A stretch of DNA of 61,428 bases, filler included, from Sphacelaria rigidula (GCA_964200075.2; 6 parts of 6 records of this genome joined end to end with filler, not necessarily neighbours in it), one strand, 5' to 3'; numbered from the whole stretch's first letter, positions 21,631-46,053 are shown. The notes: a model not told the origin generated them from the letters alone. A program made the numbers and translations.

Positions 21631-21704
21631 GTGGCACCCGGTGGTCAAACTGGTAGAACAACTCTATATTACAGAAGTCACGAGTTCGAATCCCGACACG
21701 ACCA
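21631..21704 (+). mobile_element. tRNA-derived SINE head / tRNA pseudogene
   Basis: A-box-like TGGTCAAACTGGT and B-box GAGTTCGAATCC at tRNA spacing, but no intact cloverleaf. Confidence 0.55.
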
Positions 21705-22668: not shown

Positions 22669-23487
22669 CACAGACAACATTTGTTAGTTGAGGTGGGATC
22701 AGAGAAAACCGCGAAATATCGATCCCGAACCCAACAAATTCAGCAACCGCGATGACACGCGCGACTCCTAGGTATAGTAACGTACAAACATCGAACAATA
22801 CAGTGTAGTATACAGTCATAGACAGTAAGATGGCATCCGTTGCAGGGGATATGGGGATACTGTATCCATGTTACTGCAGGGTGTTGTACATGAAGGGAGA
22901 TTATTGTAAGAAATGAAACCGAGACTGCTTCGCAAACTTCGGAGTCGTTGAACTCGATATCCTGCCCCAAACACGTGTATGTCGATATACACGCCATGCC
23001 AAGAAATATCGGAAAAGCAGTCAGTGGTACAGCAGTGCCAGGAGCAGTCTCTCACGCATGACTCGTTTGACTTCACTTGAAGAGACACGCGAACTTGATG
23101 CTGACTCGCCGATCCTGACCATTTTGTTTGGCAGCGGAGGAAGCATTGTCGTCAGGCTCAACTGAGTGGATTGTGAATACGAGCGCTTGATCACGGCTGA
23201 ATAAAGGGAGACGATGTGGGGAAAGTCGATCGCTTATTTTCAACAACGACAGAGTTTGCCCGTGACAGGCAAGAGACATCAAGATTTCATCAACATCTGA
23301 TCAACCTACATCCATCTCCCAAATGGTACCTGAGCTGAGGATTGTGTGTGAGTGTGATGCTTTCCGGCTTCGGTTCATGTCGCACCTGATTCAGCAAGGC
23401 AAGAACGCCACGGTCGCATCAAACACGTTTGTTCCACGACGAGTGACGCGCAAGTACAGAGAGCGCCTGAACAGAAACCCGACTCAC

Positions 23488-24391
23488 CCGCTCACTGAAG
23501 TCTGCCACACGCTCCACCAAGTGGTACAGGTACCTCTGCCTCTGCTGTAATTGTTGCTGCGGCGTGGTTTGAGCAGCTAGCAGAAGATTGGCTGCTGGCC
23601 TCCCTCCCCCACCGCCACCGCTGCAGCCGTTGCTCACGAAGCCATCTTTTATTGGGGTTGTGCAGGGTGCCACGCCCAGCAATAGCTTGTGCTGTATACC
23701 CACAAGCCATGTCTCCCACTCGACACCACGATTGCTTTACATGGATGGTGATAGTGAACGGGGAAATAAGGCGGAATGATGGGAAATGAGGTTGTTGCAA
23801 GGCGGTGGTGGTTGGTGGGCTGGAGGCAGGAGGCGGGACCAATTACCGAAAGCGAATTCACGATTTGAGGCAGCACGAGTAGCAACATCAGTGGTACGTA
23901 TATCCCGTCATTCGACCCTGTCGCATACTGTCAACCTCGACGGGAAAACGTACTACGATAGAAATTATAATTATAGTATAACAGAGTCTGTCGTACAGTT
24001 CTTTTCTCAGTTTCAAAACGTGTTTCTCCAATGTTGCGGCGACCAGAACAACCGTACGAGTACCCTTGACTCAATTTCATCGTTTTCCGTCAGCTAACTG
24101 ACTGTTGAGCCATACTGTTGTGAGCCTCCGAAACACTTACATTAACGCGGAGACCCTTTTCCCCCTTGCAGCAGTAGTGGTACTTGCCGCCGTTGTTGAC
24201 CCTGTCGTCGTGCCAGCAATGGTGTCGGTCGATGACGGTGTTACGACCAACATCTCCCCATTCCGCGGTCGAATACTCGCTCTTTTGGTATCCTCGGGTG
24301 GTGGCGGCTGCAGGCCACGTGGGTCGCCAGCCTTTGGCGGCGGCGGTGGCGGCGGGATATCATGTCGGTCGTCGACTTCTGTCATGGCCAT
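23488..24391 (-). CDS. Hypothetical protein, first two exons (24391-24141 and 23734-23488); a further exon probably starts at 23385
   Basis: ATG-initiated Pro/Thr-rich exon ends AT|GTAAGT; phase-2 join to NRGVEWETWLVGIQHKLLLG...YLYHLVERVADFSER|GTGAGT; no recognisable domain. Confidence 0.55.
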
Positions 24392-25432
24392 GTGCTATTA
24401 TTGCGCACGGCGAAGGCTGTTGGATGTTGGATGCTGAGAGTTCGCAAGTTCCCCTTCACGAAGCGTTGTGAAATGAGTTGCGGGTCCGACGCGTGTCATC
24501 ACTGGTCATGAGATGACTCGATCGAATATGGGTAGAAAAGTTAGAAGGCATATCCGGTAAGTTCATTTCTTAATAAAAATGCATAACAAAATTGAGCCCA
24601 AAAAAAGCCCACCACCTCCTGACCTCGGGACGAACCCGACATCTCAAGGGATAATCTATTTCAGCCATTTGACCGGTATGACCATATGGGATTTCATCAT
24701 ATGCATGAAGAAATCGGGTCAGTTTTTTCCATGTTTAAAAGGTTCGATTCGAAAGACAAAATGAGTGCCCCCTAGTCTACAGGATATTGCTTCCCGTCGT
24801 GAGATGAGTTCATTTCCAAAACAGTACGAGGTCACGCGGCCGTACTTATTTTTATATTTCTCTTCCAATGGACTAACAAATCTCCCGAGCGGGCAACACA
24901 AGGTTTTGTGTCATGTATTTTAGTCTGAAATGGTTCTACGGGGTAAAGGGCTAGAATAGTGAACCTATTATTTACCTACCCCTGAGCTATCCTTCATTAT
25001 TATGTATGGATCGAGCATGATCAGTGTTTCGAACACGGATCTGAGTTTTGCGAACAAAGAATATGTGCCACTCGAAAATAAACAAACTACAGGAGGAGCC
25101 TAAAGAAGCTCATTTTGCACCTGTTGAACGTCGTGATTCACAACGGCAGCAACACGCACACAGGACGACGACGCTACGGCTATTCGGGACGACAATACAG
25201 CTTGAACGACTGTAGTCCATCACGCACAGCAAACGCACACGACCTCAACACCCACACGTACACATGCTAGTTTAGAAAAGATAGGACCCGCTCGACATAG
25301 GCAACAAGGACTGCCCGCACGAAAAACGGTTTAGATTTTTTTCGAGCACTCTACGCAACGAGCAAGATTCCGGGCACTGCTTTGTGAAACAGCAGTATTG
25401 ACAACAGCAGTAGAACTACTCGCCACCCCACC

Positions 25433-25439
25433 ATGGCAC

Positions 25440-25478
<39 letters not shown>

Positions 25479-25738
25479 GCGAACCTTCGCCATGCAAAAT
25501 ACAAGAAGGCGCCGTCGTATGCGACGGCTCAGTCCTGTGCGGAGATATCACAATCGGGCGTGATACGGTAGTTTTCCCAGGCGCAAGGATTGAATGCCTC
25601 ATTGGTGCGGGGCCCATTGTGATAGGTCAGGGCTGCGTGGTCGAGGAGGGCGCCAGTATCTTGAGCAAGGACGCAGGGGGCGTTGTTGTCGGGGATGGGA
25701 ATCTGTTCGAGGTCGGGTGTACTGTGTGCGCTCAACAG
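25433..25738 (+). CDS. DCTN6: Dynactin subunit 6 (p27), exon 1 (left-handed beta-helix)
   Basis: KIQEGAVVCDGSVLCGDITIGRDTVVFPGARI...GPIVIGQGCVVEEGASI...VGDGNLFEVGCTV hexapeptide pattern typical of p27; donor CAG|GTACGG; later exons not located. Confidence 0.8.
25438..25477 (+). repeat. (GCA)n repeat encoding poly-Ala in the DCTN6 N-terminus
   Basis: About 12 GCA codons directly after MAQ. Confidence 0.95.
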
Positions 25739-27926
25739 GTACGGGGTATAGAAAAAGGCGGACTTTCCTGACTGCTTGCTCCAGTTGCAGTTTTGGGTGC
25801 AGTTGCAGAAACTGTACAGACAGCACAGCAGGTACTGTGCTGTTGTGTTTTGTAGTTCTCTTGATGGCACCAACACGACATTTCGAGATTCAAAAATGAC
25901 CCTTGGGGAGGGTGCAATGCCTGGGCTATTCTATTGCACTCGATGATTTTCTGACATCTTTGGCGTCGGAAAGTACACTGCTATGCTGCTCTGTACTGTG
26001 CTGTCTCCATTCACCATTTCTGACGTGGGAGGAGCAACGGTATTCCGCTCGAGTGGAATCGCTGCGATGCTGTTCGGTGCTTGTGGAAGAAACATGCAAG
26101 GGCAGGTCGAGTGGAGTATACTCAATTGCGGTATATTTGAAAGACGTACTTGAGGTATTCATACCAGGGTAGAGTGCAGGAGTCGTACCCCAAAAATAAC
26201 TGGAAAGCGTTCCCTAAACCCTACCCCCAATTTGTGTACTTTAACCCTTGGACCGCGGTGCGGGCAGTCCATCTGCATCATGCATACTTTTTCGAGTGAA
26301 AATTGATGCTGATTCAGCAGGTGGCCTACCCTCGCGGCCAAGGGGTCAAGTACGACTTCCAAAATAACCCGCAACCGAGTGCACTCTACTCGACCTGCCC
26401 TTGGAAACATGCACCGCTGTGGAGATCTTTGACGAGACTCCCATCAACCGACTGTATACCTCTCATACCATATACTCCGTATACACTACTGATTGTACTG
26501 CTGTTGTGGCGGTTTGTTGCCCCAGGACGTAAAAGGTTGCACTCTGTCAGATAGACTGGGGTTTATTTCGTTGTCGTTCAAGTCATGCTCGCGGTGCGTG
26601 AGCCATGATTTACAGTAGGAGATGGTGCCTTGCAGCGCAAAATCTGTGTTGCGTAGAGAGCAAGTCATGCGAACTCAAGGAACACATACCAAACAGACAA
26701 AAGACAGTGTAGTACGTGTATGTATGGTGAGTGCGCAGGGCAGGTGTAAGGGCCCATTATGCCCATCCACCCAGCGGCATTTCGTTCGCAAACCTTTTGT
26801 GCCGGGTCAAGTTTCCTCGCTCCCGGAAACACCACACATCGCCACATGTGAGGGTTCGGGGGTATCGGCTGCAGTTATTAGTGTCTGTATACAACAGTAC
26901 TTCATGTGAAGGTCGCGGCCGGCATACCCGACATGGTAGCTAGGTCACCACATGGATTAATGGCATCGTTAGCTCCTGCTCGTTCGTGTGTCGCTTCGAC
27001 CTCAGAGTCAGTTCCCCTCAGTCGTCACTAGTACAGTTCAGTAGGCGACCGTGCCTTACCGAACCATATCACGTGACGGGTTTTGTATTTTGGTGTTTGT
27101 CCGTGTGTTGGGTTTGCCCAGAGAGCCAATTCCCCGCAACCAAGTACTACGAAGTACACGGTAGTGCAGTGCAATACAGGAACACTGGACGGGGTTCGCA
27201 GGTCTTTGATTTTAACTGCAATTGACTTCATGCGTGAGTCATGAGATCCATGGGTTCCCTCGAGAGTATCGATACGGATGCGTGCGAATGATCACGATGG
27301 CTTTCCGAACGGTTCGTACTTGGAAATAACGATGCGGTACAACCATAGGAATCTGCTCCGGGATTTTTACTTGTGGCGATGGATCCTCGATTCTTCTCCC
27401 TCTCCCCAGCATCAGGGTCAAGCAAGTGCCACAAGAAAGTCGGGCTTGGGCTTTAGGGGGAGGGGCGATTGTGGGCAACATCAAAACTTGTTGCCAATAA
27501 ATTCAGTTTTGATGCCAGTTGATCATGACTGACTACCGCTCGCTGGGTGTGACTATTGTGCGTGCTGTTCGGTGCTGGCCAAGCTCGGCGTATTTTACAT
27601 AAACGTTATCATACACGTGACATGCGGTGAATGGTCCTGACTGACTTCGGCACAGAAAGTGTATCGTGACCTTTTCGGCCGCTTCAGTCAAAACTGAGCG
27701 ATTGAGCACAATTACACTGAAGATCGTACACTACTCAGCAGGGGAAGACAGGAACAAAAGGTTCAAATGGTGTTTGGCATCGGTTTGTTTAATAAATGCG
27801 GTGGAATAAAGAAGTTCCGTCTTTGTTTTGCTCGTCTTTCCTGCTCCTGCCGGTACAGTACATGAAATACTGTACTGTTGTAGCACACGAAGTGCGTGCT
27901 CGTCCATGTTTTTATAGGAGGTTTAA

Positions 27927-28024
27927 CCCTTAGACCGCGAGGGTAGTCTTCTGTTGAATCGGCATCAATTTCAAGTGAAAAAAAGTGTGAATGGTTCAGA
28001 AAGACTAATCTCGCGGCCTGAGGG
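27927..28024. mobile_element. 98-bp piggyBac-like MITE
   Basis: TTAA on both sides; termini CCCTTAGACCGCGAG / CTCGCGGCCTGAGGG. Confidence 0.88.
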
Positions 28025-28334
28025 TTAAACTCGAGGTTCCCGGTATATTTGACTAAAAGTTGCTGTTGATTACACCAGGGCCTCGAGTTTGAGATATCTC
28101 TACCGTGTGGTTATGCTTGCACTTCGATTCTCGCTGGCAGCTGCCCACATGTATTCCTCCGATGTTGAAAGTGCTTGGTCGATTTTCTCCCGTACCCCGT
28201 ACCGGTTACGTTCCTGGTCCGGTTGCACCAAATGAGCTGATTCATGGTCCGATGCAAACTACCTAGCTATAAGTAAGTAAACGAAGGTTGCATGTTGCGC
28301 GATAGATCCCCGGCCATGAAACGAGATACGCGTG

Positions 28335-28654
28335 CGCGAGTCGGTCGCCGGAGTTGATGATCGACTCACATGCTCGGTTGTTGTTAAGTTGAACCCCAAC
28401 AAAATAACCCTCGACTTGAACCCTGACCCAAGACGTGAAGAGATCTCGCGGGGAAGGGCACATGCAACGTGTGCCGCAAGTAACTTTGCATTTACAGAGT
28501 TTAAATCGGCGCCGGTTCGAGTCAACACACGTCCTTTGCGCTGCGGAGGGTCCGAGGACTGCCATTGTATCAACCCCCAGCAGATTCGAATGTTGCAGTC
28601 CACCCGGGAGACCGAGTACTCTTTCGACGATTAATTTCGGCGACCAACTCGCGT
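28335..28654. mobile_element. ~320-bp inverted-repeat element
   Basis: cgcgagtcggtcgccggagttgatgatcga and tcgacgattaatttcggcgaccaactcgcg are imperfect inverted repeats. Confidence 0.55.
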
Positions 28655-30499
28655 GAAACTAACACACTGCCATACGCCCAGATTCAGCTGTACTTCATTC
28701 CCCGCGCTTTCGCGCAACCCTCACTCCTTTTCACCACGGAGACTTTGGAACCTTTGATCGTATTGAACTCTAATCATACGAGCAGCGGCATCGATACGCG
28801 AGAAGTTGTGCTTTGACATACACATAGTACGTGAAGTAAAACTAACCTCTATCTAGTCCGTAGCCGGTCAAAGGCCCACGTGCCCATCATGGCTGCCAAA
28901 GGTCATCATGAGTAACCCTTTGATCGCCAGGGTGGGGGAATCACTTTTCGAGTGAAGACGATGCCGATCCAACCGATTACCTTTCTCGGTGATGAAAGGG
29001 TTGACTTCGATTGCCAGGGCGGGTGATCGGTGTTGAATGCGCATCATTTCCACTTGAATTATGACTGTAAGACCAAGACGACTCAGGGGTTTGTTCACCA
29101 AGTGGTAGGTGTCGGGAATTTCTCGGAAATTAATGATTTCGAATAGCACTAGCCCGAACCCTAACACCAACCCCAACGAAGGCATACCGAGTACTCTCGG
29201 GCGAGGGGGGTGGAAAGTGTGTCCTGGGCAAAGTGTGAGTTTCCGCACCTCAAATCGGCGCTCCAGGCGTCAATGTAGACGAAATCGCGTTCTGCGTACG
29301 CTAGGAGCACGCCAGGAGCACAGCACTTCCATTGAAGATCCGGATTTACACCTCACCAAAATCCGATACCTACCAAGCGGTAAATTCCACTGCATGACTG
29401 GAGGAATCAAACTCACGCGGCCGGTGAAGGGGTTGACGCTTCGACTCGGTTTTCATTTTCACAGAAATAACTATACAAAGAAGGTGTTTCGTCTGTGGGC
29501 TCTTGAAGGATTAACCGTTTGGCGTCGAGGTTGGGTCATCAATTGAATTGGCATCATTTCCACCTGTGAAATATGCCCGAGGCCCAGATCAACCCAAGCA
29601 AGCCGGTGGTCAAAGGGTTTCCCCCTTTTTTACGCCCCCTGATGAATAAGCACAACTTTCACTTTATGGGGTGACGGCCGGAGATGCCTTTGTCCGTTTG
29701 CCAACGTTCACAGGATTGATTGCCTAACTTCACTCCTACATACTGTAGCACTGAGCACGCGTACTTTTTCCACTCATTCTCATGAGGAAAAAACAAGCCG
29801 AAGTCTATCGTGACTGGATTTACATTGCACTGGTGGACGCTCCTGGGGTAATAACCTTGTCGCCAGATGGAATGTCTACTATAGTTCTTGATTGAGAGTG
29901 ACGACCAGGGCTGAAAAGTCGCAGAGGCTCCGTCTGCACAAGCGCAGACGACAACCGGAGGTCGCCGCCGGCGTAGGACCCCCCTCCGCGCAGGGGCTGC
30001 CCGAGGCCGAAAATTTAGGATTTCCACGTCAACATATGCAAAGAAAAATCTCACGAGGCATTCCCCATTTTTTTCGCCTGCCGACGAAAACACTCCTCGC
30101 ATGATTGTTTTCGCTTCGACCAAAAAATCTTCGCTGGCGCAGATACGCAGACGACGTTTTTATCCCTGGTGAGAACCCGTAAAAACAGGAATCCCAGTCC
30201 ATTCATCCACTGATGTTTCTGGGGTAATACTTTGCCCAGCCAGTCGAGAAGCGGCTAGAATGAAAGCGCTCTAGCCGTGGGATGAATCCAATGTATATTG
30301 TCCACACATCGGACAAAATGATCAATATATGCAATAAATGTAAAATGTACTGGGCAAAATATACGTCTTCTGCATCTATTGACCGACAACAGAGTAGTTG
30401 CGATAGGCCTATACTTTACTCAGCACATTTTTCGTCTGTTGCATGTGCTGACCACATACTGTCCAGGGTGTGATATTTTTTTGGCATTGGCCTCGTCAA

Positions 30500-30666
30500 T
30501 CAGCAGAAACCTTGCACGGTTAGGACGAATCATGGCGGGTTTGAATCACCAAATCCACGATTTCTTCGGCCGGATTGCCCAAAAGGAGGGAAAAAATTGA
30601 CCGCTGATTGAAGGGGTATCCACGCAACTTTTGCGCCATTCCACGTGTCTGGGCTACGTGTACCTG
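30500..30666. repeat. Dispersed repeat; inverted homologue at ~55087-55245
   Basis: ggggtatccacgcaacttttgcgccattccacgtgtctg versus cagacatgtggaatggcacaaaagttgcgtggatacccc. Confidence 0.8.
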
Positions 30667-31870
30667 NNNNNNNNNNNNNNNNNNNNNNNNNNNNNNNNNN
30701 NNNNNNNNNNTTAATTAATTAANNNNNNNNNNNNNNNNNNNNNNNNNNNNNNNNNNNNNNNNNNNNCGCTCGAAGACTTATTTTTTATTATTCCACCAAC
30801 ACAGGGTCAACCCTGTGTTAGTGGGGGTCCGGTCCCAAAAGGGTTGATACGATATGCGGATCACAGCCCAACTCGCCTGTGTCGTTGATATATCGCTTTG
30901 AGAGCTTAAATCCTTTTTTAGGCTGGCCCAGCTCATACTCGTACATCGTTTTTTTCACGCATACATGCCAGCTTCTCGCTCGCTTGAGCTCTACAGTGAC
31001 TTCGTCCACCTCCTCGCACGAGACTTTGGCTTGAAAACCTGGTTCGTCCCACTACTCTCATCCCCATCCGTTATCCCGTGCGGAGACATGGAGGGGTACT
31101 ATGCAGTTTTGTCCATGTCCTGTCCACAACGGAAAGAGACTGTGATGGGATGCAGGTGATCGCACCAATCAATACATATTGATACTGGGATACGTGCTGC
31201 CGGTGCTGCCGACCTGGGTAGCGGGGAACAATTTCGATAAAACCTGGATTTGCCCCCCGAAAAGGAATGAGGGAATGGGGGTGCTAAAGTGCCTTGTTGC
31301 ATCCGTTAATGCACTCGAGTCAACCCCCTGCTTGCACGTTTTGCAGCCGCTAGCGAAGAAAATCCTGGGCTTTTCTGGCAGCAGTGGCAGTGGACAACAA
31401 TCGGCGGTGCCGGAGCTAGATGCTATGTTGTCCAAGTCGAGGAAACTGACGGTGGGTGCTCGGGACGAAGTAGACCATTACACAAAAAAACGACCACAAT
31501 ATCGCCAAGAATGCCTGCCCGGTGAAAAATCATTGACTGTTCGCCAACCTCATGCTTGCCCGACCGTTGATAAACGTCATTGTTGCACATCCACGTTATC
31601 GTATGGATCGACCCGTGGACACAAGATAGACGTGCCCACGGTGAACGAACGGAGACACTGGCTACGGTAAACTTGAGGGAACAGAGTAAAGGAGAACAAA
31701 AGAAGGGGATGGAGAGGCTTAACAGAGCAGAAGAGGGAGAAGTGAAAAGGTAGAAAGAAAACGGGCTGAATATCCATCTACAGTAGTACTGATGCCGGGA
31801 ACAAAACAACGGTAGGCCCTTGCCGCATTGAATCAGAGCAGACCGTACATGAGAAGTGATGGATAAATAG

Positions 31871-34800
31871 CGCTTTGAGCGAGACGGACCCTCTTGTCAA
31901 TGATTTCCATATTCTCGATTCCTCGCGGGATGTTGTTGCTGCTGCTGCTGTTATTATGGTAACGGTCGCGGCTTTCAATGCAACAGCCTTTTGCTGGTGG
32001 CAGGTCGGATTAGTGTCGGCCGTCGCGTGGAGACGCATCATTGAATGTTTCAAGGATGTTGTTTCAAGATGTTCTCCGTAGGGTACATTTCTTTATATAC
32101 CCGAGGTTTTTACCCGGAATCACCCGTATCCCGACAGTTCTGGATGTTCTGTAAGCCTCACATGCCGATACTTGACAGTTCTGTGGGTTCTGTAAGCTCC
32201 CATACCGCTACGTAATAGTTTTGTGAGATCTGCACGAATCTTTTGCCCTTACTCGGGTCACCGTTACCCCCTTGTAGAAATATCCGGTTGCGGGTAAGGG
32301 TGTCTGTACAACCTCCACCCTCTATCCGACAGGTTCTGTAAGTTCTGTAAAAAATCTCATACCCTACGAGCTGGTCCAGCCTAGACGCGAGTTTGCAGTT
32401 TGCGTGCCCCACCTCACCTCAATGTTGAGAGGTAATACTTTCGAACTTGCTCCGGAGAATGATAAGGCATAGCGGAAGAAAAAATTCGGGACCCTGACTT
32501 TTCTTTTCAATAGGTTAACGCCATTTTACCGAAAACTGGATACTGATTATGGGCTTTGAGTCCAACTCTCAACATGAGGGCGGGGCGGGGTGATTTTGAC
32601 ACTGGGCCGGTCGAAATTCAGAATAGTATTTTGCAGGCCATTTTACCGGCCCAGGTTTGGTACTTGTGTTTTGAAATTTTATTTGGGACCTCGCTGGGAT
32701 ATAATTAACCAGATAAAATGGAACAGGTTGATTTTATTCGAGAGTTTAGGACGTTTTATTGAACACCATATTTCCACAAAAACGCCTATACCTCTCCAAA
32801 ACTAGAAAATTAACGTGTATTTTTTTTCCCCACTATGCCTTTTCGATTTTGTATGCTAAGTTTCACATCACAATTCAGAAATTGAGCTGAAAAACTGAGA
32901 TGAGGGCCAAGAACTATGTCCATTTTTACTTCAAATGCCCCTATAAAACGGACGAGGAAAAAATCAGCTTGAAAGACAAACCAGAAGCTGATTTTTTTTG
33001 TTATACCCCGACTATTCACCACACCAAATTTCAAAGCACCACTCTCAGAAACTGAAACGCTTGATCAAGATTTGGTGCATTTGATGCCTCTGCTCGTAAT
33101 ATATTGGTTGTAGTACAGAATTTTGTGTGCGCCATATCTCGAGAGAGATAACGAATGAGGTGAAGGTGAGGGTATCGATCATTGCCTCGTGCTCCAGAGA
33201 ATGTCCACAACACACACCGTCATTATCCGCTGCATATATCGTTCGGGGTTTCATATAGACTTTAGTATGAACCCTATCTCCGAACTGTATAGGAATTACT
33301 AGACATGATGTTTGATGAACGAGGGAAAAAATTGGCCAGACTTGCGAGCAGATGAGCATCGTCCCCTTGGTTCGACGATTGATACGGTATGCGGAATAAC
33401 GGCCCAACTCGTCCGTGTTGATGAGATATTGCTTCGAGAGCCTGAACCCTTTTCTAGGCTCGACCAGCTCGTACCAAAACTATATCGTACCCTGCAGAAC
33501 ACAACCCTGACATTTCCTCTTCAACCGTCCTCCGGGGAACCCTGGGGGGAGAACAACCCCAAATCCGAACCCAAACCAAACAATGCACAAAAACTATGAT
33601 ATATCGAAGCATGATTTCGGAATATTTTCAGTTCATGTTGTTCTGCATGGTATGATTTTTGGTATTCCCGGAGTATTTACCCGGGTATCAAACGTACACG
33701 ACAGGTTCCGTGAGTTCTGCAGGCCTCCCCTTCCATTCCCGATAGTTCCTTACGATCTGTAAGGAAATGTTCATCCCTACCCGGGGCACGGGTATGCCCT
33801 TGTAGAAATACCCGGTTGCGGGTAAGGGTTTGCGTACAATCCCCATACCGTACCCGACAGGATTTTGTAAGTTGTGGAAGACCTTGATATCGGTACCCGA
33901 AAGTTCTGTAAGTTCTGCCAGAAATCTCATGCCTTACCGAACATATCCGTATCCTACATTACACAACCTTGAAAATAATTTGTCTTACTGCGGGAGCATA
34001 ATGCACAACGAGAAAAAGTTTGTATAGCGTCCATCCGCCTCAACAGACGTGGGCACCAATCGACGCATCTGCAGTCCAGGGGGTGACCTGGGAGCGTTGG
34101 CTCGTGTGCGTTGCCCATGCAGCCTCACAGGGTGTTTGTATTCGAAATGGCTGACCTCATCTTGGTAATGTTCGTTTCCCGTCCATGGTATGTGCTGTGT
34201 GTGTTTCGAAATGGAACGTGTGCTATGTTCGCGCAGTTCAGGCAGTGTGGGCATAAATACTGCACTGCGATGTGCCTCCAACCCTTGCGCATAGTCCACA
34301 AATGTAATTTCTATCCATTCATCCTGAGACCGTCGGTAGATCCGTTGTGCATGCTGTGGGTGTAGTGGATGTTGTGGATGTTGCATACCCCGGACAAAGG
34401 AATACACAGCCAAAAAGTGTACTGTGTATAGTATTGACTATTGCGCATATTGCACGAGACAATGGATTACATACTGTACGCAGTACATTTTTTGTCAATG
34501 GAATTTATTGTCCAGGGTGCGGTGTGTTTTGTATGACTTGATGGCAGGCAAGGCAAACAATCGATCGAGCGATGAACCAACCAACCACGAGGTGTCTGTA
34601 ATGATATAGCGGATAAGTATCTGATCCCAGTCATGCTACGGTGTGGAAAAAGAAGAGGCGGGGGAAGGGGGAAGGGGTCGATTTTACGTCACAAACGGGG
34701 TCCTGCGTGTGTTGGAGGACCTCATACACACGTCACGGGCTTGGGCACAGGTGAAGGCATTGCCGAGAAGCGGGAGTATGTGCGTTGTGTCGACATACCG

Positions 34801-37800
34801 AGAACCTTCAAAGGAAACCTGCTGCTTGCAGCGATGCTGTGGGGTTAAGGTGGTTCCCTTTGTCTTTGATGTAAGGCGTGAATCATGTCACACACTCGAA
34901 CACACATGCATGCCCTTATTGGAGGATGAGTCATACCGCTCTTGCTTTATTGAAGGCCGTACGTGTTGGCGGATGTGATAGTGCCACTGTTTCATACGAA
35001 AAACTCTGGCCATGTTCCTGTCTGCACGTACCATGTAACCAGCCACGTGCACGATGCAATTCTGTTTCATCTGGTTTGATTCGATTGATTGATTGTCGCA
35101 CACTAGTGTAACTGATCCACGAGGGAGTCAGCCATCATTGTAGAAGTAGAGATGTACCTGAGTCGAGATGAACAAAACCAGAAGCACACGCTCAAGGAAA
35201 CTCGAAGAGGCAGGAAAACGAAGAATTGATGACAAAACAAATTGTGTAGATTGGACAAAAAGGAGAGACAAAACACTCAAAAGGCGTAGTCGAAAAACTT
35301 CGTTTCCGTCTTCGCAGAAAATGTGCACCAACGGTGATCGTGATGATGAAGACGGCGACGACTGAGATGACTCGAATTTGCCCAGCATCTCTCAGCCTTT
35401 CTCATCTTGCCAGTATCGCTCCTTCTCCCGCTTTTCTTATGTTGTTGTGTCCGCAGGAGCCGGAGATTGCAAGGGCGGTGAACAGCACCGGCATGTCACG
35501 GGAGCAAGTGCGGGATTACATTCGGGCAAAACTAGAAGTGTCCTTGCAGGAGAAACAGATTGGTAAATTCAAAGAGGTAATGAACCACTGGAATGAAGCA
35601 ATTTCAATCTCTCCTCTGCCCCGGCGTAGGTGATGTTAATCTTGATAGTACGGAGTACCACCTAGCGCGGCTGCGAGCAGCAGTCCTGCACTGATGTGGG
35701 ATTGTGCACTTACTGATGTCCTGCTTATCCACTACAATGGAAACGTGCTCCTCTCACGGCTTAGCCGGGCGTGGAGAATGACGCCAAATTGGTGCCGAAC
35801 GAGTAAACAAAACGGAACGCACCATGACGAAACGACCAGAAAATAATGTCGTCGACATTTTTTTGTGCCGAGATCCGAAATCCGATATTTTTTAGGTACG
35901 TGATCTTAGAGGGGTATCCCACATGTACCGTTTTCCGCGCCTGTGCGCACAGCTATCACAGTTGGGCCAAGAAGTAAGAACTAACCCTTACGACCACGAC
36001 CGAGCCCGTGAAGGGCATGTGAGCTGCGGAGGATATCCCTACAGTCTGGGCCTCCCGCTTTACGGCGATGGATAAGTAGTGCAAGCAAAAAATTGACCGC
36101 CTTCCGAGGTGGGACTCAGCGTTGACGCGAATTAGAGTAGTGGGCAGTCTAACTATTCAGGGGTGCTTTGAGGTTTTCCTCGGGTACTACTCTTCGATAG
36201 GATTCGAAATTGCTAGCGTCGGTAGATTTTGGTACAATAAACAGATCATCCTCGAAACACAGTGCCCAAGTCAGTGTTGGTTGGTGTTATCGGGTGATAC
36301 GAGCAAATACCCCGTTCATCAGGAGGGTGTTATTGACCGTGAAACCCAGTTTTTCGGCTCTAGTGCAATGAGTAGGTAGAATTTCAAAAAATAAAAGTGT
36401 ACACTTCTTCACAAATATGATCGGGACAGGCTCGATCGACCGAAAATACCGGAGAGTAAGAATCTGGGCTGAAACCTGGCAGGACCCCCGATGACCAGTC
36501 AGCCCGTGGGTCACTCAATATTGACTACACATGATTTTTTTCTTGGAATGTGGAGCGGATAAAAATATCTTCAGATCTCCAATAAGGTGAGCTGTAGCAA
36601 GCAAAAAAAGCCCAAGAAAATCGCCAAATACGAAAAAATCACAAAATGCCACATGATTAGTTGGACCGTCCACTACTGTACGTCCCATCTATCGGAGGAG
36701 TAATGATCCAGGGTGCGGCCCAGCATAAAAAAGAACCGAGTCAACGTGAGTCGACCCGCTGTACTGTAAGCCGGTCGCCCGGGTGGCTCGGGTGGTAACC
36801 TCGAAAACCTTCTGACGGTTGGGCCGTGGGTTCAAATCTCGGTGCAGTCACACAATCTCGGTTTTTTTCTCACATAATGCCCAACAGTGGAGAGCGACTA
36901 TGTCGTGGGTACACAAAATTCGACTCAATGATCGACGAGGGAAAAGGACTGCTGAAGCACTCTCGCGATAAAAAATAATATAGGCTAGCATCGCAGAAGA
37001 AAGGTGGAGAACTAAAAACAAACGAAAAAAGAAGAAACTTCTATGTTGGCCTTCCTCCTGCGTCACCCCGGCTGGTGCGCCCACATATACCGAAAGGTGT
37101 AGGCAGGCGTCCAGAATAGACGGGACGACAACTGTACATGCATATACGGTACATACTGTAAGTAAACTATCTTGTTGTGCTTTTTGCGTCCGAGATATTC
37201 ACGATCCAACGACCAACGCCTAGAAAACGACCAAATGATTGCTTTTGCTGCGGGCTATCACGTTGAGTCTATTAAGCTCCCGACGGTCCTCTCAGGTGAG
37301 CATCATCTCTCCGTTTTTTTCGGTGGTTTCGTCTCCCTGCACCGAATTATTTGCACGTGTTTTACTTGTGCACCTTGGAACGTTTTACCGTTCTCTCAAG
37401 TGCTGCATTGCTTCTCGCTAGACGTTATATGTTTTGTATATACCGCATCTAGCACACTGCAATATGGCATGTTCGCTAAATAACAGCCTCACCCTGAATA
37501 GTACCAGATGGGGACAGGTTTGCGCTGTTCGTGGCACCATATCGATATCTGAACTAGTGCACCGCGGATTATCATATACTGCATTCCCCCCACTCCACCC
37601 CACCCCCTGAGAAGTTGTCCGTCCCAGCTTGGTAGAGATGCGAAGTCACTGATCATGTAGCTACTGATACGGCATGCAAAATCATGAGTACACCTTCCCA
37701 TCCCCTGAACAAAGCCTATGTGTAATGATTTTGGGACCTTGAAAATGTGTCACCCGTACGTGTGATAAAGCAGCGAAATACAGTATGGAGCACATATTCC

Positions 37801-39788
37801 TAGCCACAACAGCATCGGGGCATTTTTAACCGAAGTCAGGATCTGTTGGGGTGTGCGCTTTGGGTTGTCCCCTGAAAGTATGGATCTGATTTAGGCCCCT
37901 GAAGACGTGAAGACATGAGTTGCAAAAACAGCTTGTGCGACTGAGTTTGTTTGACGAGAGTTGACGCGGTGCTAGGGTACTGATTCACCGTGCGAGACCA
38001 AAATGTAAGGCACTGATCAAATGTGAGGCATTGATCAGATGTAAGGCATTGGTTGACTGATTGATTGATTGATTATTGTCCCACTTCAACTCCCCCCCAG
38101 GTAGTCATGATCCAGCCGTGGTCACATGATAGACGTACCCAAGACGAAACGGAACTGAAACACTCGCTGAAGAAAAAAAAGGAACAGAAAAAGTCAAGCA
38201 TAACGACATAGTAGACTAAGAGAAGGAGAATCAAAAGTCAACAAAAGCAAAGCACAAAAATATTTGGCCGATTTAAAAGAAAAAAAGAAAGCATGTACCG
38301 GGGAGAGATGAGTTGATTGATCCCTTGAGACAACGGACTCGTCCCGAGAAAGTAGGGCTTGAAAGTGTGACGGGGGGGGGGGGAAAGGCGGACAGCCAAC
38401 GCAAGAACGCTAGCATTGCTCAAGTTGTTTTTAACACCGTCACTGCTCAAGTTGTTTTTCAACGCCATCACTTGCTTAATTTGTTCTCAGCACGGCTTCC
38501 GATCATGTGGACCTCTGCGCGCGTTCAAACAAGCGGGCGCCTTTCTAGATAACGCGAGGTGAAGCCTCAGTACGCTTGTATGCCGAAAGACCCGCTCGCT
38601 TGCTGGAGTATCTGAGGCGATGCGTCCGCGTACCTGTGTCGCTCTCTAATTCTCGAAGGCGGCATGGCGACTCACGGTGTACTCGGGGTTGGTGGGATTG
38701 GCGTTCAAGTCGTGCTATGGAGAGCCCTGGTTCAATGACCCCTTCCTCGTCTGGTAAGCGGCTCAAGACTTGTCATGTGAAGAGGAGCTTCGGGTTCTCG
38801 ATGGTCAAACTGATGCGTCGCGTCGATATCAGTTTCGGCGGATTCCGTGTGCTCAAATCACAACACCGCAGTAGTGTCTTCTTTTTTTTCAATGGTTCCC
38901 TCTCGTCGGAAACGCGATTAGGAAAGCTAGCAAAGATACTCTCGATGGAGACGGATAGGCTGCGGTAGTGCTGACCCAATGCTCGACACTTGACTTCCAG
39001 GCTTTGGCTGACTCGCCCCTGTGGTGTAATGATACAACTATGATAACACCACGAGGTCGGGAAAATACGGTTTTGATTTTCCCGGCTGATACGCTTGGGT
39101 TTTTTCTGATTCCGAAAAGTACTCGTAGCTAGCTGATTTCCGTATTTCCGTCGTGGAAAACGTGAAAAGATGTTCAGCATGACTGAAAATGGTCCATTGG
39201 AAGAGAAGAATCGACGCAGTGCGGGAGTGTTCAGTCATGATCCACTCCGTGATACCAACTTGCAAGGCATATCTCGGGGGTAGAGATGAATGGCTTGATC
39301 CCTCGAGACCACGGACTCGTCCCGAGGAAGGACGAGAAGGGATAGAAAGTGCGCAAAAACAATTATGCAGGTACCACGGGTGAGGTTTGTATAATTCCGT
39401 AACACGACAGACTTGTCTAAACAAAGGACGTAGAGGGAGGGGGGGGGATTAAAAGTTCGGCTAAAGGTGAACAACAGGTGAACAACAGGTGCAGCAAATG
39501 AACGTAACAATGTGCATGCTGGTTGTGCGGAATGCTGGAACAGGAGACTCATTCGTGCGATCCAGTTATCCAACCATGGTACAACTTCGAAGTTGACTCT
39601 CGACTCCGCGCGAGGCATTTGAGGTACTATGTTACGTACCCTTTTGGTTCATCGCGTTGTATGTATCGGAAAACGTGACCCTTGCGTATACAACCAGGAA
39701 AAACTGGCCCGCTGGAGACCACGGAGAGGCTCTTGAGCTGTACTACCACCTCTCCATGGGGATTTACTGGCACTTTATCGCCTATCAG
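31871..39788 (+). CDS. Ceramide synthase (TLC/Lag1 family), partial; exons 34631-34750, 35457-35576, 38659-38753 and 39698-39788, plus a probable TM1 exon at 31871-32003
   Basis: Spliced in phase: ...VLEDLIHTSRAWAQ|EPEIARAVNSTGMSREQVRDYIRAKLEVSLQEKQIGKFKE|AAWRLTVYSGLVGLAFKSCYGEPWFNDPFLVW|KNWPAGDHGEALELYYHLSMGIYWHFIAYQ. The KFxExxWR, PW, WxxWP and YY..YW pattern is that of CerS; all borders AG/GT. The Lag1 motif exon would lie beyond the contig end. Confidence 0.85.
32090..32380. repeat. Dispersed repeat family with (GTTCTGTAA)-type subrepeats; second copy at ~33665-33965
   Basis: Shared cccttgtagaaata(t/c)ccggttgcgggtaaggg and cgacaggttctgtaagttctg blocks. Confidence 0.8.
33250..33480. repeat. 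Dispersed repeat; copies at ~30840-30950 and, inverted, at ~50960-51176
   Basis: gatacg.tatgcgga...gcccaactcg...gatatt/atcgctt.gagagc shared across the three copies on two contigs. Confidence 0.8.
36133..36680. mobile_element. ~550-bp non-autonomous TIR element (TA-flanked, Tc1/mariner-like)
   Basis: Termini TAGAGTAGTGGGCAGTCTAAC / GTTGGACCGTCCACTACTGTA; second copy on contig 3. Confidence 0.7.
36774..37090 (+). mobile_element. tRNA-derived SINE
   Basis: A box GTGGCTCGGGTGGT and B box GGGTTCAAATCTC at Pol III spacing, followed by a ~250-nt non-tRNA body. Confidence 0.7.
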
Positions 39789-41750
39789 GTGAGACCGTCA
39801 AGTTTCCTCTTGTATTCCTGTGCGACGGGTATGTCAATCCTACATGGCAGGGTCTACATAGGGTATAAGTCTGCTTGAATAAGATGTTGCCCCGTGCAAG
39901 GTACTAATGCACGGCGACGCCGGTTTTCCTACGACGAAAATGGGATCATGGGTTTAGGTTTCCTTTTTTCCATGCATTCGGCCCAGCCCTTCTCATCTCA
40001 TAACTTAAGCCCTTCTCAATGAATGACTTTGGGCCTTCTTTTTTCATGAACTTATCCTTTCTCATTTGATGAATTTAGCCCTTCTCATCCCTCTGGACAA
40101 CTTCGCCGTCTCGAGGGGATCACCCGACACACGTGTTCCCCGATATCATCACATGCTTGAAGTTTGGTGTCGCGGATTGGATCATGACCAAACATTCCCG
40201 CACTGCATGGACTACGTTCTGCGATTTTATTTTCTTTGCTTACCTACGCCTTCACGCGTTTTAACCTTGGAAATCATACACTCCTCGGGAAGAACAAATC
40301 TTGTGGGATTTGAATCACCGACTCCGCACTAACCAATTTTTAGTAGGGCAAAGGCCTAGAAAAGGTATACCTTCTTGTTTTTTGCCTAAGAAAGGTACGA
40401 AAGATGGCCAGACACGCGAAAACAGCCAAACACGCCATTTTGACCGTCTTCGCTCCAGATTTTTCACGCACACCGTTCGGGGGGGGCATTGGCACCCGGG
40501 ACTAGGAAAAAAAACGGATAAAAAACACGTTACTCGAGAGATATGGCCACGCAAAAACGAACATTTCGCCTCCAGATACCGCTCACCTTTTGTAGGCCAC
40601 ATTTCGCCGAGGTATACCTGATCAAGGAATTATTTTTCAATCGTACCTTGTCTGGGCCACCGATCGGCCGAGAACGTACCTCTGCTAGGTCATCGCTCTC
40701 TACACTGTGCCAGGGAGTCTACGCGCCGACTCCAACCATGGCGCCCACACATTTGGCTCTTTTCCCGCTCATTTGCCGTTCACGTTCGCCACAACGACCG
40801 CGCCCCTTTCTCCCCGGCAATGGCTCCCGAGTCTCTCCGCATCGACGAAATGACTGGACTCATAACTCACAACGCGTCGGTCTTTTGTGATACCGGGGTT
40901 TGTGAAACACCGTACTGTTCCNNNNNNNNNNNNNNNNNNNNNNNNNNNNNNNNNNNNNNNNNNNNTTAATTAATTAANNNNNNNNNNNNNNNNNNNNNNN
41001 NNNNNNNNNNNNNNNNNNNNNAGAAATATGCTGCTGCTGCTGCTGCTTCTCGTGCGGGAGGCGGTCCGCGTTTCGACGTGCGACAATACCCATGCACCTG
41101 TCGCGTTCTTGCCCCCCCCTATTCGAGATTGACTCTGATATGTTTCCGTGTTATTACCCCCATAGCATTTTCAGGGTACAGATCACTTGTTTTTCCCTGT
41201 ACTGGACGCTGACTTTATTCCCATCACCAGCAGTAGCCACGCGTGCGAGAGACACCCCACGTGCACAGCTCGCACAGAGAGATGCCCAAAACTCTATCTC
41301 CCAGCACTCAGCCTAGTGGGGAAGCATAGACTCATCAGCGGGTAGTACGGACTAGCGCCTTCCAGCATGGTGGATATCACGCGCAGCGTGCGTGGGCGTT
41401 GTAGCAGTATCGAAACGCGGACCGTCTCTCTCATGAGGAAAAACGGCAGCAGCAGCAGCAGTATTGACACCGGCTGATTCAGACTCACCCCAGCCGCGTA
41501 CGTCTACTGGCAGGAACGATGGTGCTGATACTGCTGCTATTGCTCCTTCTCCTTGTTGGGTGTCGATGCAAGGCACATGAGACGTGCCAATCACAGCACA
41601 TTTCTAGTTTATTGAACACTGTCTGTACAATGGATACATGCTAATCACGCTGGCTAAACCCTCAGTGCATCGCGGAGCAATGCGGGTAAAACGTACTAGC
41701 GGCAATCGCCTGTTGGCGTTCTTGTCTGCAACGCCACCGCTATCAATCGC

Positions 41751-42334
41751 AAGCACATGATCACGCGCTTCCATGCCTCCAGCCAACATAGCTCATGTCC
41801 AAGTTGCCTAAGTCGCGTTTTTGACAAAAGCTATATCCAAGTCCAGCTCGGTGCAGGTAGGTGTATTTTTTGGCTCTGTGTGTAGCAGGCGCGTTTCTCC
41901 TGCGCTACCAGGCCGTTTGCACCCCACGATGGCTTGAACGGTGGCTACGGAATGTGTAAGTGTATTGCAGCTGCTGTGGTGTCGATGAAAGGCACATGGG
42001 ACGAGCGCGGACAGGTATTCCGATCGCTAGTGGTGGACATGAGCTATGTCCAACTTGCGACTCGGACATAGCTCATGATCACCTCCAGTCGGTTGGCTGT
42101 ATTTTTTGGTACTGTGCAGCAGCACATGATTACGTGTTCCCATGCCTCCAGCCGACATAGCTTATGTCCAAGTTGTCCAAGGGGCGTTTATGACAAAAGC
42201 TATGTCCGAGTCCAGTCCAGTGCGGATACATGTACTTTTTGGCCCCGTGTGTAGCAGGCGCGTTTCTCCTGCGCTACCAGGCCGTTAGCTCTCCACGATG
42301 GCTTGAACGGTGGCTACGGAATGTGTGAGTGTAT
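41751..42334. repeat. Direct duplication of ~215 bp (41751-41965 and 42121-42334)
   Basis: agcacatgat...gtgtgtagcaggcgcgtttctcctgcgctaccaggccgtt...ggctacggaatgtgt occurs twice, ~370 nt apart. Confidence 0.9.
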
Positions 42335-42477
42335 CGGTATCACTTGAGTCTCACCCTAGCTTACTAAATGAGGACGGCGCATGATTTCTCATCATGCTCC
42401 TTTCCCATCGTAATCAAGGAAAAGAAAAGAAAAGAATTGGAAGCGCGACGCAAAGCAGAGCAATCGGGGATCCTGCG

Positions 42478-44830
42478 TAGGCCCTGACCTCTAAGGCATG
42501 CCCTATTTTTTGCCTTAGAGCCCTTTTTATAGAAAGGGGTTGCCTGAGAGGGGGTATGGTGCCTGAGATGCCTTGTTTGAGCGAGGCGAACACATATACT
42601 ACAAGAAAGAATGGAAGTAAGGCACACGAATGACGACGCCAACTCCAATTACAGGTGGCGACAGCACTTGAGAAATAACCAGATGAGAAATCGAGGCTCA
42701 AATTTTTCAGATTTTAAAGGAATTGATGCTAAGAAAATTTTCTCAGATCGGAGCAAAAATAAGAATAAGAAATTGAAAGATGCAAGAGGCTCGGCGGATA
42801 AGAAATCCGTCATCGACACTGCAACCTTGGGAAATAAGAAACTGCTCCTATAATAGATCCATCAGCCCGTCGACGCGAGGATGCCCAACCCCTCTCGACA
42901 CCCCTCCCCCCCTAGAGAATACGGTACAGTAGTCTGTATGTATTCTTGTACTGTACAGTGCAATACAGTACTGTACTACAGTACAGAAATGGTACAATAA
43001 ATATTACACTTCAACGTACATGATCGGAAGATGACTGACTACTGTCGGCGCACAAGAATTTACTCGCTGGTTGAGCGATTAGTTGGACAATGCGTCTGCT
43101 GGTACGCTACGACCGGGAGCGGGATGGAAGAGGGGAAGAAAATGAAGGACGAGGGGGCGGAAAAGTGAAGGAAAGACAGGGGGATGAAGAGGGTGAGAGC
43201 AGCGATGAGGACGACGAGAGCAGTGGTGAAGATGAGAGCAGCGATGAGGAAGAAATGAGTGATTCCGGTCACTTTATGTATCATTTTTCGTAAAATTGTA
43301 AAAAAATGAGCCTGCGATGATGCAGTAAGTTTTGCAACATTTTCGTCACTTATGCTTCAGAGTCTGCGGCGTTTACTTCTGTATACTGTGGTCGTTGTAC
43401 CTCTTTTTAGGTGTTTTTCATCTTTACCTGGTACGCCTCTTCATGTCGCTTGATTCTGTTATGTGTCCTGGTGCAAAGTAGATGTCTCTCACAAAGATGA
43501 ACAAACGTTGCTGGACGATGATGACGACGTGGTGGAGGAAGACGGTGTCATCGACTTGGTGATTCCCGATGGATTTCACCTGCAAGCTTTAAGACCGGCT
43601 GTACTAGATAGTTTTTTGGTGAAGCGTCGGGTCGTACTGAGACTGAGCATGGGGTGTTTTGGTGCGTACATCACGCGTAGGTCCCGGGAGCGGACTAGTC
43701 ATGTATACGACTACCGTGTGCAGCTAGAGAAAGACCAAAGTACACGGAGCGTGAGGCTCCCGTTAGGCAGATACACCACAGACCCCCGCGCGGCGTTGGG
43801 TGCTTGGGCTTTTCTAGAGGGGAACCAGGAAAGGCAGGCCGAGTGTACACCTGAAAATGGAGGGAAGAACCGTCACTCTGCAGATTCAGGAGCAGGAGTA
43901 GGAAGAACGGCAGTGCGTACTAGTAACTCCGGGAGGAAGAACATTGAGGCCGAACGTGCGCAACGTAGAGTATCAAGCTTGATTGGCTGCAGTGGCTGCA
44001 GTACTGTACAGAGTAGAAACGTACCGTATTGTTGTCCGTGGATGTACAGCATACGTGCCAGTATACCGTATAGACTATAAAGTGAATACAATGGGATGTG
44101 ACTGCATTGTTTGTTCGTTGTTATTTCCTCTCCGATTTACCGGTGTGTACTATATCATACATGTATGGTACAGTTTGATACTTGTGTTGGGATTCGCTCC
44201 AATATAATTGTCCTTATTTACATTCACTGCACAGCAGAACTGTGCACCACGACTGCACTGCTTAATCACTTTTGTTTGCTGTATACTGCAAGGCCCCCTG
44301 CTGATAATCTGTCCAAGCAACACTGCATAACCCCCCTAAATGTGTCTTCCTTCATTGTACTGTAGCACTACATCCGTTCGCAAAGAGAGATATTACTTTT
44401 CAAGCATTCCATCATTTTGTACGCGCCCGGCAAAAATAAGAATTTGGTCTCATGAAAGAAATTCATCATTGCACGTGTGCGGAAAGTAAGAAATTGGCTT
44501 CAAGAAATTATGCTTGGCTCGGCGATAAGAATAAGATGTGAGCCTCGCCTCAGATAAGAGTTTCTTAACCCTTAGACCGCGAGATGAGTCTTTCTGGATC
44601 ATGCATACTTTTTTTCACTCGAAATTGATGCCGATTCAACAGAAAACTTCCCTCGCGGTCTAAGGGTTAAGTAGTGATGCCACCTGTAGTTGGGATACCG
44701 GGGAGATTGTCTAGGGCAAACCTAAGGCAAATCAAATCCAGAAACTAAGGCATCTCAGGCATGGATTTGACTCATCAGGCATGCCTTAGTTGTTGCCTGA
44801 CCCCCAACTTTTTCGCCAGGCGGGGGCCTG
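42478..44830 (+). mobile_element. Probable internally deleted DNA transposon (hAT-like termini) carrying coding remnants at 43090-43266 and ~43480-43980
   Basis: Ends TAGGCCCTG / GGGGGCCTG with inverted subterminal motifs TAAGGCATGCC and TGCCTGAGATGCCTT; acidic ORF then DLVIPDGF...LDSFLVKRRVVL...YDYRV...GAWAFLE; no TSD seen. Confidence 0.5.
44569..44666. mobile_element. 98-bp piggyBac-like MITE, intact
   Basis: Perfect 15-bp TIR CCCTTAGACCGCGAG with TTAA target duplication on both sides. Confidence 0.92.
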
Positions 44831-46053
44831 CGGCGAGCCCTCATCCATTTGCCGTATCGGTTAAGGCCTAGTTCTGCGACTACACGGCGCCCAGGTTCTG
44901 CATCTTCGGTATTTTTGCTCCATTGTACCAATCCAGATCGTATTCGTGAACAGATGCAAATAACACATAACTATTTGCTCTGAAATTCCATCCAATCATC
45001 GCACTAGAGCTGAAGATATGCGTTTTCTTGTCCGTACGGTCAGTGACGCCCCCCTGATAAGCCCCTTACTCGTTTTTCCCAGTCAACACCAACCTTGGGA
45101 TTATGTAATTAGCATGTCACGAGTATCTATCGACTCTAGCACTTTCGAGTGCTACGGAAGAACTGCATGCGAGAAAAATTCAAAAATACAGTACTCCATT
45201 CCAAAATCCACCCCATTTCCATGACTCCCATATGATTGGAACCGTGATCGCTGTGGGCGGTACGCACTGCAACTGGAAGGACTGTTGTAACGATAGTATA
45301 ATAGTACTCGTAATGTTGTAGTGCTGTGCTGCACTGCAATCTGAAATATCTTGCCACTTTTCGCGCTGGCTATCTAAATGGTGCATAGTGCATCGGACGA
45401 TCAATACTGCTATAGTCAGTACCATCATCAGGTTATGTCTATCCCAGATGGGCCTAGATATATCAGACAGCTTGGGATAGACAGTCGCTGAATTTTAGAG
45501 GTGTCTTCATCATTGTTCTGGCCGCGCGAGTGGGATAACGGCAAAAGGAACTATGGTGCTGGTTATTACTACTTTCATTTCGTATCAAGAGCTGCGGGCT
45601 ATTCCCCCAAGGTCAGGCAGGAAGACACTATATGTGTGACTCACCGCTCGGAAGTTTACACGCTCGTCATCTTCTATGTTATGGTGTACTTCATGACTCA
45701 TCCTGACGCAGCTACTACTCCCTTCAATGTTTTTGACCCGAAGTAGTGTCACCTTCAGTCAGCGCTACCGGTCAAAGTAAATTTGAAAATCGGAACATTC
45801 TTTATGAATGTGTTTTGATTGAGAAATGACGAATGGGAGCGAACCGATCAATTGCATGATGACAAAGATATATTCATTGATAAATGACGAACGCAAGGTA
45901 TCCAATCAGACCGTCCGATACCTGGCTGCCTGCGTTGTTTAAGGTGTCAAGTCATCGTAAATTACACGTGTTTTTCAGTGATTACTCATCAGCACTTAGG
46001 GCACGCGGGGACAACCGAGCCCCAACAGGCACACATTCATCTTTCACAGCAAC

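Follow-up and report, generated by a model that had tools for sequence, protein, structure and literature searches.

The stretch of DNA analysed here, hereafter the window, comprises 61,428 nt, filler included, from Sphacelaria rigidula (GCA_964200075.2). It joins six pieces, each some 10,156 nt long, by linkers N44-TTAATTAATTAA-N44 that recur every 10,255 nt, and adjacency of the pieces is not implied. The piece at 30767-40921 carries, as judged from homologous proteins, part of an expressed gene for a ceramide synthase (CerS), of which four exons on the plus strand were identified (Table 1). These exons encode the region between the first transmembrane helix (TM1) and the TLC domain, a linker that in the animal enzymes CerS2-6 harbors a homeodomain-like (Hox-like) module, and the algal linker is predicted to adopt a similar fold. 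An earlier reading of the same DNA (the original prediction) had placed such a module in two exons directly upstream of the TLC domain; the second of these proved to be a genuine exon, the first is intronic.

Four spliced exons of a ceramide synthase gene

Evidence for splicing was obtained from contigs of three small sequencing runs (X1, X2 and X3) and of one DNA-like run (X5), all placed on 30767-40921; the available runs comprised four small ones taken by guess to be RNA (X1-X4, 8-12% of words) and three that were DNA-like. In all three RNA-like runs, spliced contigs joined the four exons in order, with GT..AG ends at every joint, and in each run it was a single contig of 1621-1741 nt, at a depth of about 125-143, that spanned the whole series. 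The raw contig bounds were 31345-31450/1, 35456/7-35574/6, 38657/9-38752/4 and 39697/8-39788, and the final exon bounds were set after settling the ambiguous bases at the joints. None of the contigs from the DNA-like run X5 showed such joints, and the absence of an intron-less form from this run speaks against a genomic retrocopy.

Joined by script, the four exons amount to 411 nt, or 137 codons, with no stops and with canonical splice sites. Exon 1 is preceded by the acceptor ...ttttgcag and followed by the donor gtgggt, while exon 2, which reads GAG CCG ... AAA GAG, has a pyrimidine tract and CAG ahead of it and GTAATG after it. The joint leading out of exon 2 (35574/6 to 38657/9 in the raw bounds) skips 3082 nt with GT..AG ends and corresponds exactly, in the contigs of all three RNA-like runs, to the KFKE/AAWR junction that had been proposed as the entry to the TLC domain. 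Exon 3 is held by this joint (35576/38659) on one side and by 38753/39698 on the other. On either side of the four exons the contigs carry sequence, up to 152 nt at the 5' end and about 1180 nt at the 3' end, that occurs nowhere in 30767-40921; the 3' portion was likewise absent from the other pieces of the window.

The rest of the gene was sought in the window. Compared by tblastn with the whole window, the two full-length relatives described below, P0008 and P0009, gave no match with residues 1-65 and chance rows only with residues 202-383, and the search for a TM1 exon upstream, in 20512-31346, turned up just a hexapeptide-repeat gene. The N-terminus with the TM1 exon or exons, the Lag1 HH motif, and the C-terminus lie outside the window.

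Repeated DNA was also found within and after the introns of the gene (Table 1). In these parts the summed word depth of X5 reaches 83,000-911,000, as compared with about 65-75 in single-copy parts, and 35101, 37972 and 39331 are points where branching of contigs is frequent.

Table 1. Coordinates and content of the features described in the window
Feature	Coordinates	Strand	Length	Content and support
CerS exon 1	31347-31451	+	35 codons	PLAKKILGFSGSSGSGQQSAVPELDAMLSKSRKLT; end of the post-TM1 motif (PLAKKILGF), G/S-rich insert, predicted helix 1 PELDAML; spliced contigs of X1-X3
CerS intron 1	31452-35456		4005 nt	GT..AG; joint in 3/3 RNA-like runs
Intronic open frame	34631-34750	+	120 nt, 40 codons	...NGVLRVLEDLIHTSRAWAQ; AG and GT at the flanks
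CerS exon 2	35457-35576	+	40 codons	EPEIARAV...GKFKE: predicted helix 2 EPEIARAVNST, turn GM, predicted helix 3 SREQVRDYIRAK..., then TLC entry GKFKE; joints on both sides
CerS exon 3	38659-38753	+		AAWRLTVYSG...EPWFNDPFLVW: TLC start and TM2; last codon split TG/G
CerS exon 4	39698-39788	+		KNWPAGDHGEALELYYHLSMGIYWHFIAYQ: TLC, TM3; final exon of the CerS gene within the window
Repeated DNA	36191-37207, 37886-38224, 39242-39580, 40259-40921			within and after CerS introns
Ty1/copia-type retrotransposon	11900-17172	+		gag-like ORFs, Pol beta-barrel/integrase-region ORF, RVT_2 ORF
Hexapeptide-repeat exon	25433-25738	+		Met and poly-Ala start, hexapeptide repeats (PF00132), ends in an AG/GT donor
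Gene with thioredoxin exon	about 46036-47221	+		apparent signal-peptide-like Met exon near 46036
Thioredoxin exon	47072-47221	+		PF00085
Open frame	7287-8483	-	398 codons	
Runs of N	10157-10256, 20412-20511, 30667-30766, 40922-41021, 51177-51276			between the six pieces

The exon-like frame within intron 1

The first exon of the original prediction (34631/34688-34750) lies within intron 1, since the contigs of X1-X3 join 31450/1 straight to 35456/7. Its exon-like look arises because it is open, keeps the reading frame, and has AG and GT at its borders. These properties would also suit a 120-nt in-frame cassette exon that contributes an extra linker helix to a minor isoform, the more so as the account of splicing is drawn from the joints listed, and a rare joint may sit among the 143 further joints beyond them. 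Such a cassette exon is nevertheless highly improbable: all three spliced contigs skip the frame, the word depth in the bin 34496-34834 is 0, 0 and 1.36 for X1, X2 and X3, tblastn with P0008 and P0009 gave no match at 34631-34750, and the alignment with these two proteins shows nothing inserted where exon 1 meets exon 2. Open frames of this length are, moreover, common in the introns here, and the one in question is itself part of a 117-codon open reading frame (ORF) at 34625-34978; Pfam yields only PHD_2 for it, at E 0.14. Skipping of the exons by transcripts, which the original prediction had foreseen as an objection to itself, was thus observed for this frame, whereas exon 2 is retained. 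Helix 1, which had been read from the intronic frame, is to be replaced by the predicted helix PELDAML of exon 1.

Full-length homologues and the identity of the gene

Taken singly, the exons, which are too short for these libraries, gave no TLC, CerS or homeodomain match in Pfam or the PDB (phmmer with exons 2, 3 and 4, and the exon-4 profile A1). The Atlas search with exon 2 gave nothing usable, and a Pfam search of three frames of 38401-48302, with stops as X, recovered just the thioredoxin exon of Table 1. A homologue search with exon 2 returned one match among four candidates, P0001, an ORF from the genomic sequence of a near-identical assembly, with 98% identity, and exon 4 extended to 40 residues returned no match. 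An exhaustive representative search with exon 4 produced four matches, P0002-P0005, of which P0003-P0005 are genomic fragments from unannotated assemblies (Logan/ENA). The best of the four, P0002 (934 aa, E 1.7e-09), was rejected as a repeat artefact, with seven matches through the short word ...QHGEALELL.Y.L....

A profile of the exon-4 fragments led to six proteins, among which P0008 (383 aa, EukProt) and P0009 (387 aa, 'unnamed protein product [Ectocarpus sp. 13 AM-2016]') are full length and annotated. The homologous fragments P0003-P0007 show the same Q/GT donor as exon 4 and have an AG/G acceptor in common; the invariant Arg in the read-through of these fragments corresponds to this acceptor, which indicates that the intron positions are conserved. 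Both full-length proteins match the TLC family PF03798 over residues 136-331 (Pfam; E 3.5e-40 for P0008 and 2.2e-37 for P0009) and carry the Lag1 HH motif in the form RRSDF..HHVAT..HDV[SA]D. Their C-terminal motif reads D-I-R-S-D-N-D in P0008 and D-I-R-S-D-N-E in P0009, and the section of the study by Kim et al. that deals with the DxRSDxE motif reports it only from the CerS clade (PMC8789539).

The product of the four exons is colinear with both relatives, at 46-53% identity (73/135 residues for P0008 and 62/133 for P0009). For exons 1 to 4 in turn, the identical residues number 17/33, 19/40, 21/32 and 16/30 in the comparison with P0008, and 14/31, 16/40, 18/32 and 14/30 in that with P0009. 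Searched by tblastn against the whole window, the two proteins hit these four exons and nothing else, with E 9.5e-05 for exon 1, 4.6e-06 for exon 2 and 6.6e-10 for exon 3. A MAFFT alignment of exon fragments with the full-length proteins (A3) was discarded, as it misplaced exons 1 and 3. The window holds only the first 62 or so residues of the TLC domain, and the domain match to PF03798 that was to be expected of a CerS is found in the homologues and not in the window exons alone.

By the criterion of this homology, the window contains part of an expressed ceramide synthase gene whose nearest annotated relative comes from the brown alga Ectocarpus. The affinity of the gene is plausibly algal (stramenopile-like), in keeping with the algal CerS of the original prediction, and the linker segment, which had been expected to recur in relatives, is indeed conserved in P0008 and P0009.

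Alignment of the linker with human CerS6

A phmmer search of the PDB with P0009 identified human CerS6 (8qz6_A) at E 4.8e-30 and 108 bits, aligning residues 39-339 of the algal protein with 32-332 of the human enzyme, and the alignment starts at TM1, spans the whole Hox-like region and carries on into the TLC domain. Between residues 39-137 of P0009 and 32-132 of CerS6, gaps of only 1, 2 and 1 residues were introduced, and the distance from anchor to anchor is 99 residues in P0009 vs 101 in CerS6. Residues 138-239 of P0009 continue into CerS6 133-234 without gaps. Exons 3-4 of the window align ungapped with P0009, and exons 1-2 are colinear with it; the claim that the 66 residues after the linker match CerS6 without gaps therefore has indirect support only, by way of P0009. 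Yeast Lac1, by comparison, reaches 29 bits with P0009 (E 4.3e-06), in an alignment that starts at the TLC domain only (residue 163 on).

Within the linker, Y120-A121 of P0009 stand opposite W116-F117 of CerS6, and R124-R125 stand opposite R120-R121. The window product has Y-I in the register of W116-F117, as had been proposed. In CerS6 two essential basic residues, K125 and R131, flank the domain. P0009 (K136) and the window (GKFKE) both have Lys at the position of R131, and the position of K125 is taken by E130 in P0009, with K132-K133 two residues further on.

A predicted homeodomain-like fold and the case for a generic connector

The linker of P0008 (residues 63-144) was modelled with AlphaFold2 from a four-row alignment, at a predicted local distance difference test score (pLDDT) of 70.9, with 84-85 in helices 2-3, and at a predicted template modelling score of 0.46. 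The model places helices at its residues 22-30, 38-48 and 52-81 and has the predicted shape of a three-helix fold with a helix-turn-helix (HTH) and a long recognition helix. A two-row alignment of full-length P0008 gave a model of low quality (pLDDT 43), too poor for a structure search; its best-scored part, residues 81-130, comprises the same three helices, at 84-92, 100-110 and from 114 onward.

When the linker model was compared with the PDB by Foldseek, homeodomains filled 40 of the 40 rows listed (E 0.16-0.48, probability 0.51-0.99). CDX1, for example, superposed with a root-mean-square deviation of 0.9 Å over 48 columns at probability 0.99, and several others did so at 0.9 Å over 43-48 columns. 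With VIA-align, the first 24 of the 50 rows listed were homeodomains. The Hox-like domain of CerS6/Lass6 was among the structural neighbours of the model and superposed on it, and the register of this structural alignment to CerS6 agreed within one residue with that of phmmer. The one single-domain sequence match of a segment profile in the PDB was to a homeodomain, ZHX1 HD3, in the right register at E 0.5. As a lead only, Atlas features for P0009 66-142 ranked chordate and arthropod CerS N-terminal clusters first, with scores of 0.76-0.82, and some of the nearest clusters carry PF00046 and are named sphingosine N-acyltransferase. In its place between TM1 and the TLC domain, its length and its predicted three-helix, homeodomain-like fold, the segment thus corresponds to the Hox-like domain of animal CerS2-6, in support of the original prediction.

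Several observations weigh against this interpretation. No PF00046 match at E<=10 was found by Pfam in exon 35457-35576, P0008 or P0009, under HMMER filters that remove most rows with E above about 0.1, so that at the level of sequence the outcome is the one that the original prediction had itself named as telling against a homeodomain; the exon gives only HTH_33, at E 0.08 and 13 bits against a cut-off of 25. The segment profile A5 finds neither CerS6 nor Lass6 in the PDB at E<=10, with TPR-like repeats as its top rows. The exon alone matches designed helical repeats bearing the same G-x-S-x-E-x-V motif, and the motif must therefore be regarded as generic. Posterior probabilities in the Hox-like part of the phmmer alignment are just about 0.1-0.7, and no Foldseek row reaches E<=0.001, the best being 0.16. 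The fold was predicted for the relative P0008 from four rows and not for the window's own product, and AlphaFold may have learned the CerS pattern. If the homeodomain signature is taken to be W48, F49, N51 and R53, the algal residues, read in the register of the CerS6 alignment and of the exon alignment with the homologues, are Y at 48, I (window) or A at 49, and L (window) or R (P0008 and P0009) at 53, and the position of Asn51 is occupied by A or G. As the window exons alone have no TLC or CerS match, the identity of the gene as a CerS rests on its homologues, and the run type 'RNA' of X1-X3 is an automatic guess. Finally, the Hox-like domain of 8qz6 is itself, in the account of the structure in PMC11919693, a docked AlphaFold model.

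The absence of PF00046, the preference of the segment profile for TPR-like repeats over CerS6/Lass6, the match to designed helical repeats and the A or G in place of N51 would all suit a linker that is merely a generic helical connector of a CerS subfamily, related by descent neither to homeodomains nor to the Hox-like domain of animals, its likeness to homeodomains having arisen by convergence or through predictor bias. In their discussion of the CERS class, Holland et al. allow for convergence even in the case of the animal domain (PMC2211742). A connector of this sort is considered unlikely, though a serious contender. The structural neighbours are specific, in that homeodomains occupy every Foldseek row listed and head the VIA-align list despite the far more numerous HTH families in the PDB. 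The linker also shares with CerS6 its place, near-equal length and register, and the structural and sequence alignments to CerS6 converge on the same residues to within one position.

On balance, these data argue that the four exons belong to an expressed CerS gene with a divergent homeodomain-like linker module that is equivalent to the animal one and would act as a cap, structural or regulatory, and not bind DNA, a reading that is probable without being secure. That the gene represents a Hox-type CerS architecture outside animals can be stated with moderate confidence.

A putative cytosolic cap at the acyl-CoA entrance

The product of the gene would be an acyl-coenzyme A (acyl-CoA):sphingoid-base N-acyltransferase of the endoplasmic reticulum, a member of the TLC/Lag1 family, of which the exons would cover the part from just after TM1 to TM3. 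The 60 or so residues between TM1 and the KFKE-AAWR entry to the TLC domain would form the divergent homeodomain-like module, in which a first helix, PELDAML, would be followed by a loop, a second helix, EPEIARAVNST, a turn of 2-3 residues, and a long third helix (SREQVRDYIRAK...) running into TM2. The module would match the CerS2-6 Hox-like domain in place, length and register and, as in human CerS6, would lie on the cytosolic face of the membrane. Binding to DNA is not expected of it, because the W, F and N of homeodomain positions 48, 49 and 51 are replaced by Y, I/A and A/G.

In the human enzyme, the description of the fumonisin complex in PMC11919693 places Lys125 and Arg131 at the entrance of the cytosolic cavity, adjoining the Hox-like domain, whose last helix bears Arg118 and Arg121; all four residues contact the CoA-mimicking groups of fumonisin. 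Activity needs just the end of the Hox-like domain, according to work cited in PMC4901127. Several Lys and Arg residues are kept in the algal helix 3 and in K-F-K-E, and these, together with the analogy to CerS6, suggest that the module caps the acyl-CoA entrance on the cytosolic side. This entrance, at which the CoA moiety of the substrate binds, would be lined by basic residues that helix 3 and K-F-K-E contribute, although this role at the CoA entrance is inferred by analogy.

Comparison with animal, yeast and canonical homeodomain proteins

Human CerS6 (8qz6), the animal CerS2-6 enzymes in general, and Drosophila Schlank have in common with the algal proteins TM1, a three-helix module (predicted in the algae), the basic Lys/Arg residues, the KF.E..WR entry, a TLC domain with the Lag1 HH motif, and the DxRSDxE motif. 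Schlank is reported to bind DNA. The algal proteins differ from the animal Hox-CerSs in the lack of a Pfam homeodomain, in the exchange of W48/F49 for Y and I/A, and, in the window, in the exchange of R53 for L. The window protein also has a G/S-rich insert ahead of helix 1, unlike the animal Hox-CerSs. The luminal N-terminus has no Trp in P0008 and one in P0009, whereas a Trp cluster is described for animal Hox-CerSs in the part of PMC11742613 that treats this region.

With canonical homeodomains (PF00046; Meis2, CDX1 and Engrailed), which are the top structural neighbours, the algal module shares a predicted helix 1-loop-helix 2-turn-long helix 3 order. It is unlike them in lacking a significant sequence match, Asn at position 51 and a basic N-terminal arm, and in being embedded in a polytopic membrane enzyme, where its predicted helix 3 would continue as a transmembrane helix. 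Yeast Lag1 and Lac1, CerS1 and plant LOH are non-Hox ceramide synthases. The two yeast proteins share the TLC domain and the Lag1 motif with the algal enzymes, but the TM1-TLC linker of P0009 aligns with neither, and neither is among the 50 VIA-align rows listed.

Other features of the window

Outside the CerS piece, the window contains a Ty1/copia-type retrotransposon with a PF22936 match at E 0.0011 (below the cut-off) and a 537-codon ORF with RVT_2 at E 1.2e-39. The exon with hexapeptide repeats (E 1.4e-06) belongs to a separate gene on the piece upstream of the CerS piece, and a further gene includes the thioredoxin exon (E 4.5e-10). For the long open frame on the minus strand, Pfam reports no family at E<=0.01; part of it, judged by eye, presumably resembles the end of an ABC-transporter ATPase domain. 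ARAGORN found no tRNA genes in the whole window.

Origin of the module and its significance

In the homeobox surveys, the tabulated distribution of the CERS class is animal- or bilaterian-only, with the class missing from the ancestral eukaryote (PMC2959044 Table 3, PMC6125248). Passages of two further studies ascribe the CERS homeodomain to gain by translocation or exon shuffling, or to convergence (PMC4901127; PMC2211742). CerS specialists, where they take up the matter in PMC11742613, state that it is unknown how the Hox-like domain arose and how it is tied to the N-terminal Trp cluster. As read from the protein sequences, the putative module is present in the algal proteins without the N-terminal Trp cluster of the animal Hox-CerSs. 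Among the papers that full-text searches listed, none described such a module outside animals; one may already be shown in annotations of InterPro and AlphaFold DB or in the species tables that supplement PMC8789539.

It is tempting to speculate that the order TM1/homeodomain-like module/TLC is an ancient trait of one CerS lineage, common to stramenopile algae and animals, and not a bilaterian gain by exon shuffling, and that the 'CERS homeobox class' derives from a pre-metazoan homeodomain-fold module that did not bind DNA. This proposal is put forward tentatively, as a possibility to be taken seriously that falls somewhat short of being probable, and the question is open to test with existing proteomes and AlphaFold models. 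If true, a stramenopile CerS with an equivalent module would move the fusion back near the root of the eukaryotes, and a structural role of the module at the acyl-CoA entrance would be favoured over a transcriptional one.

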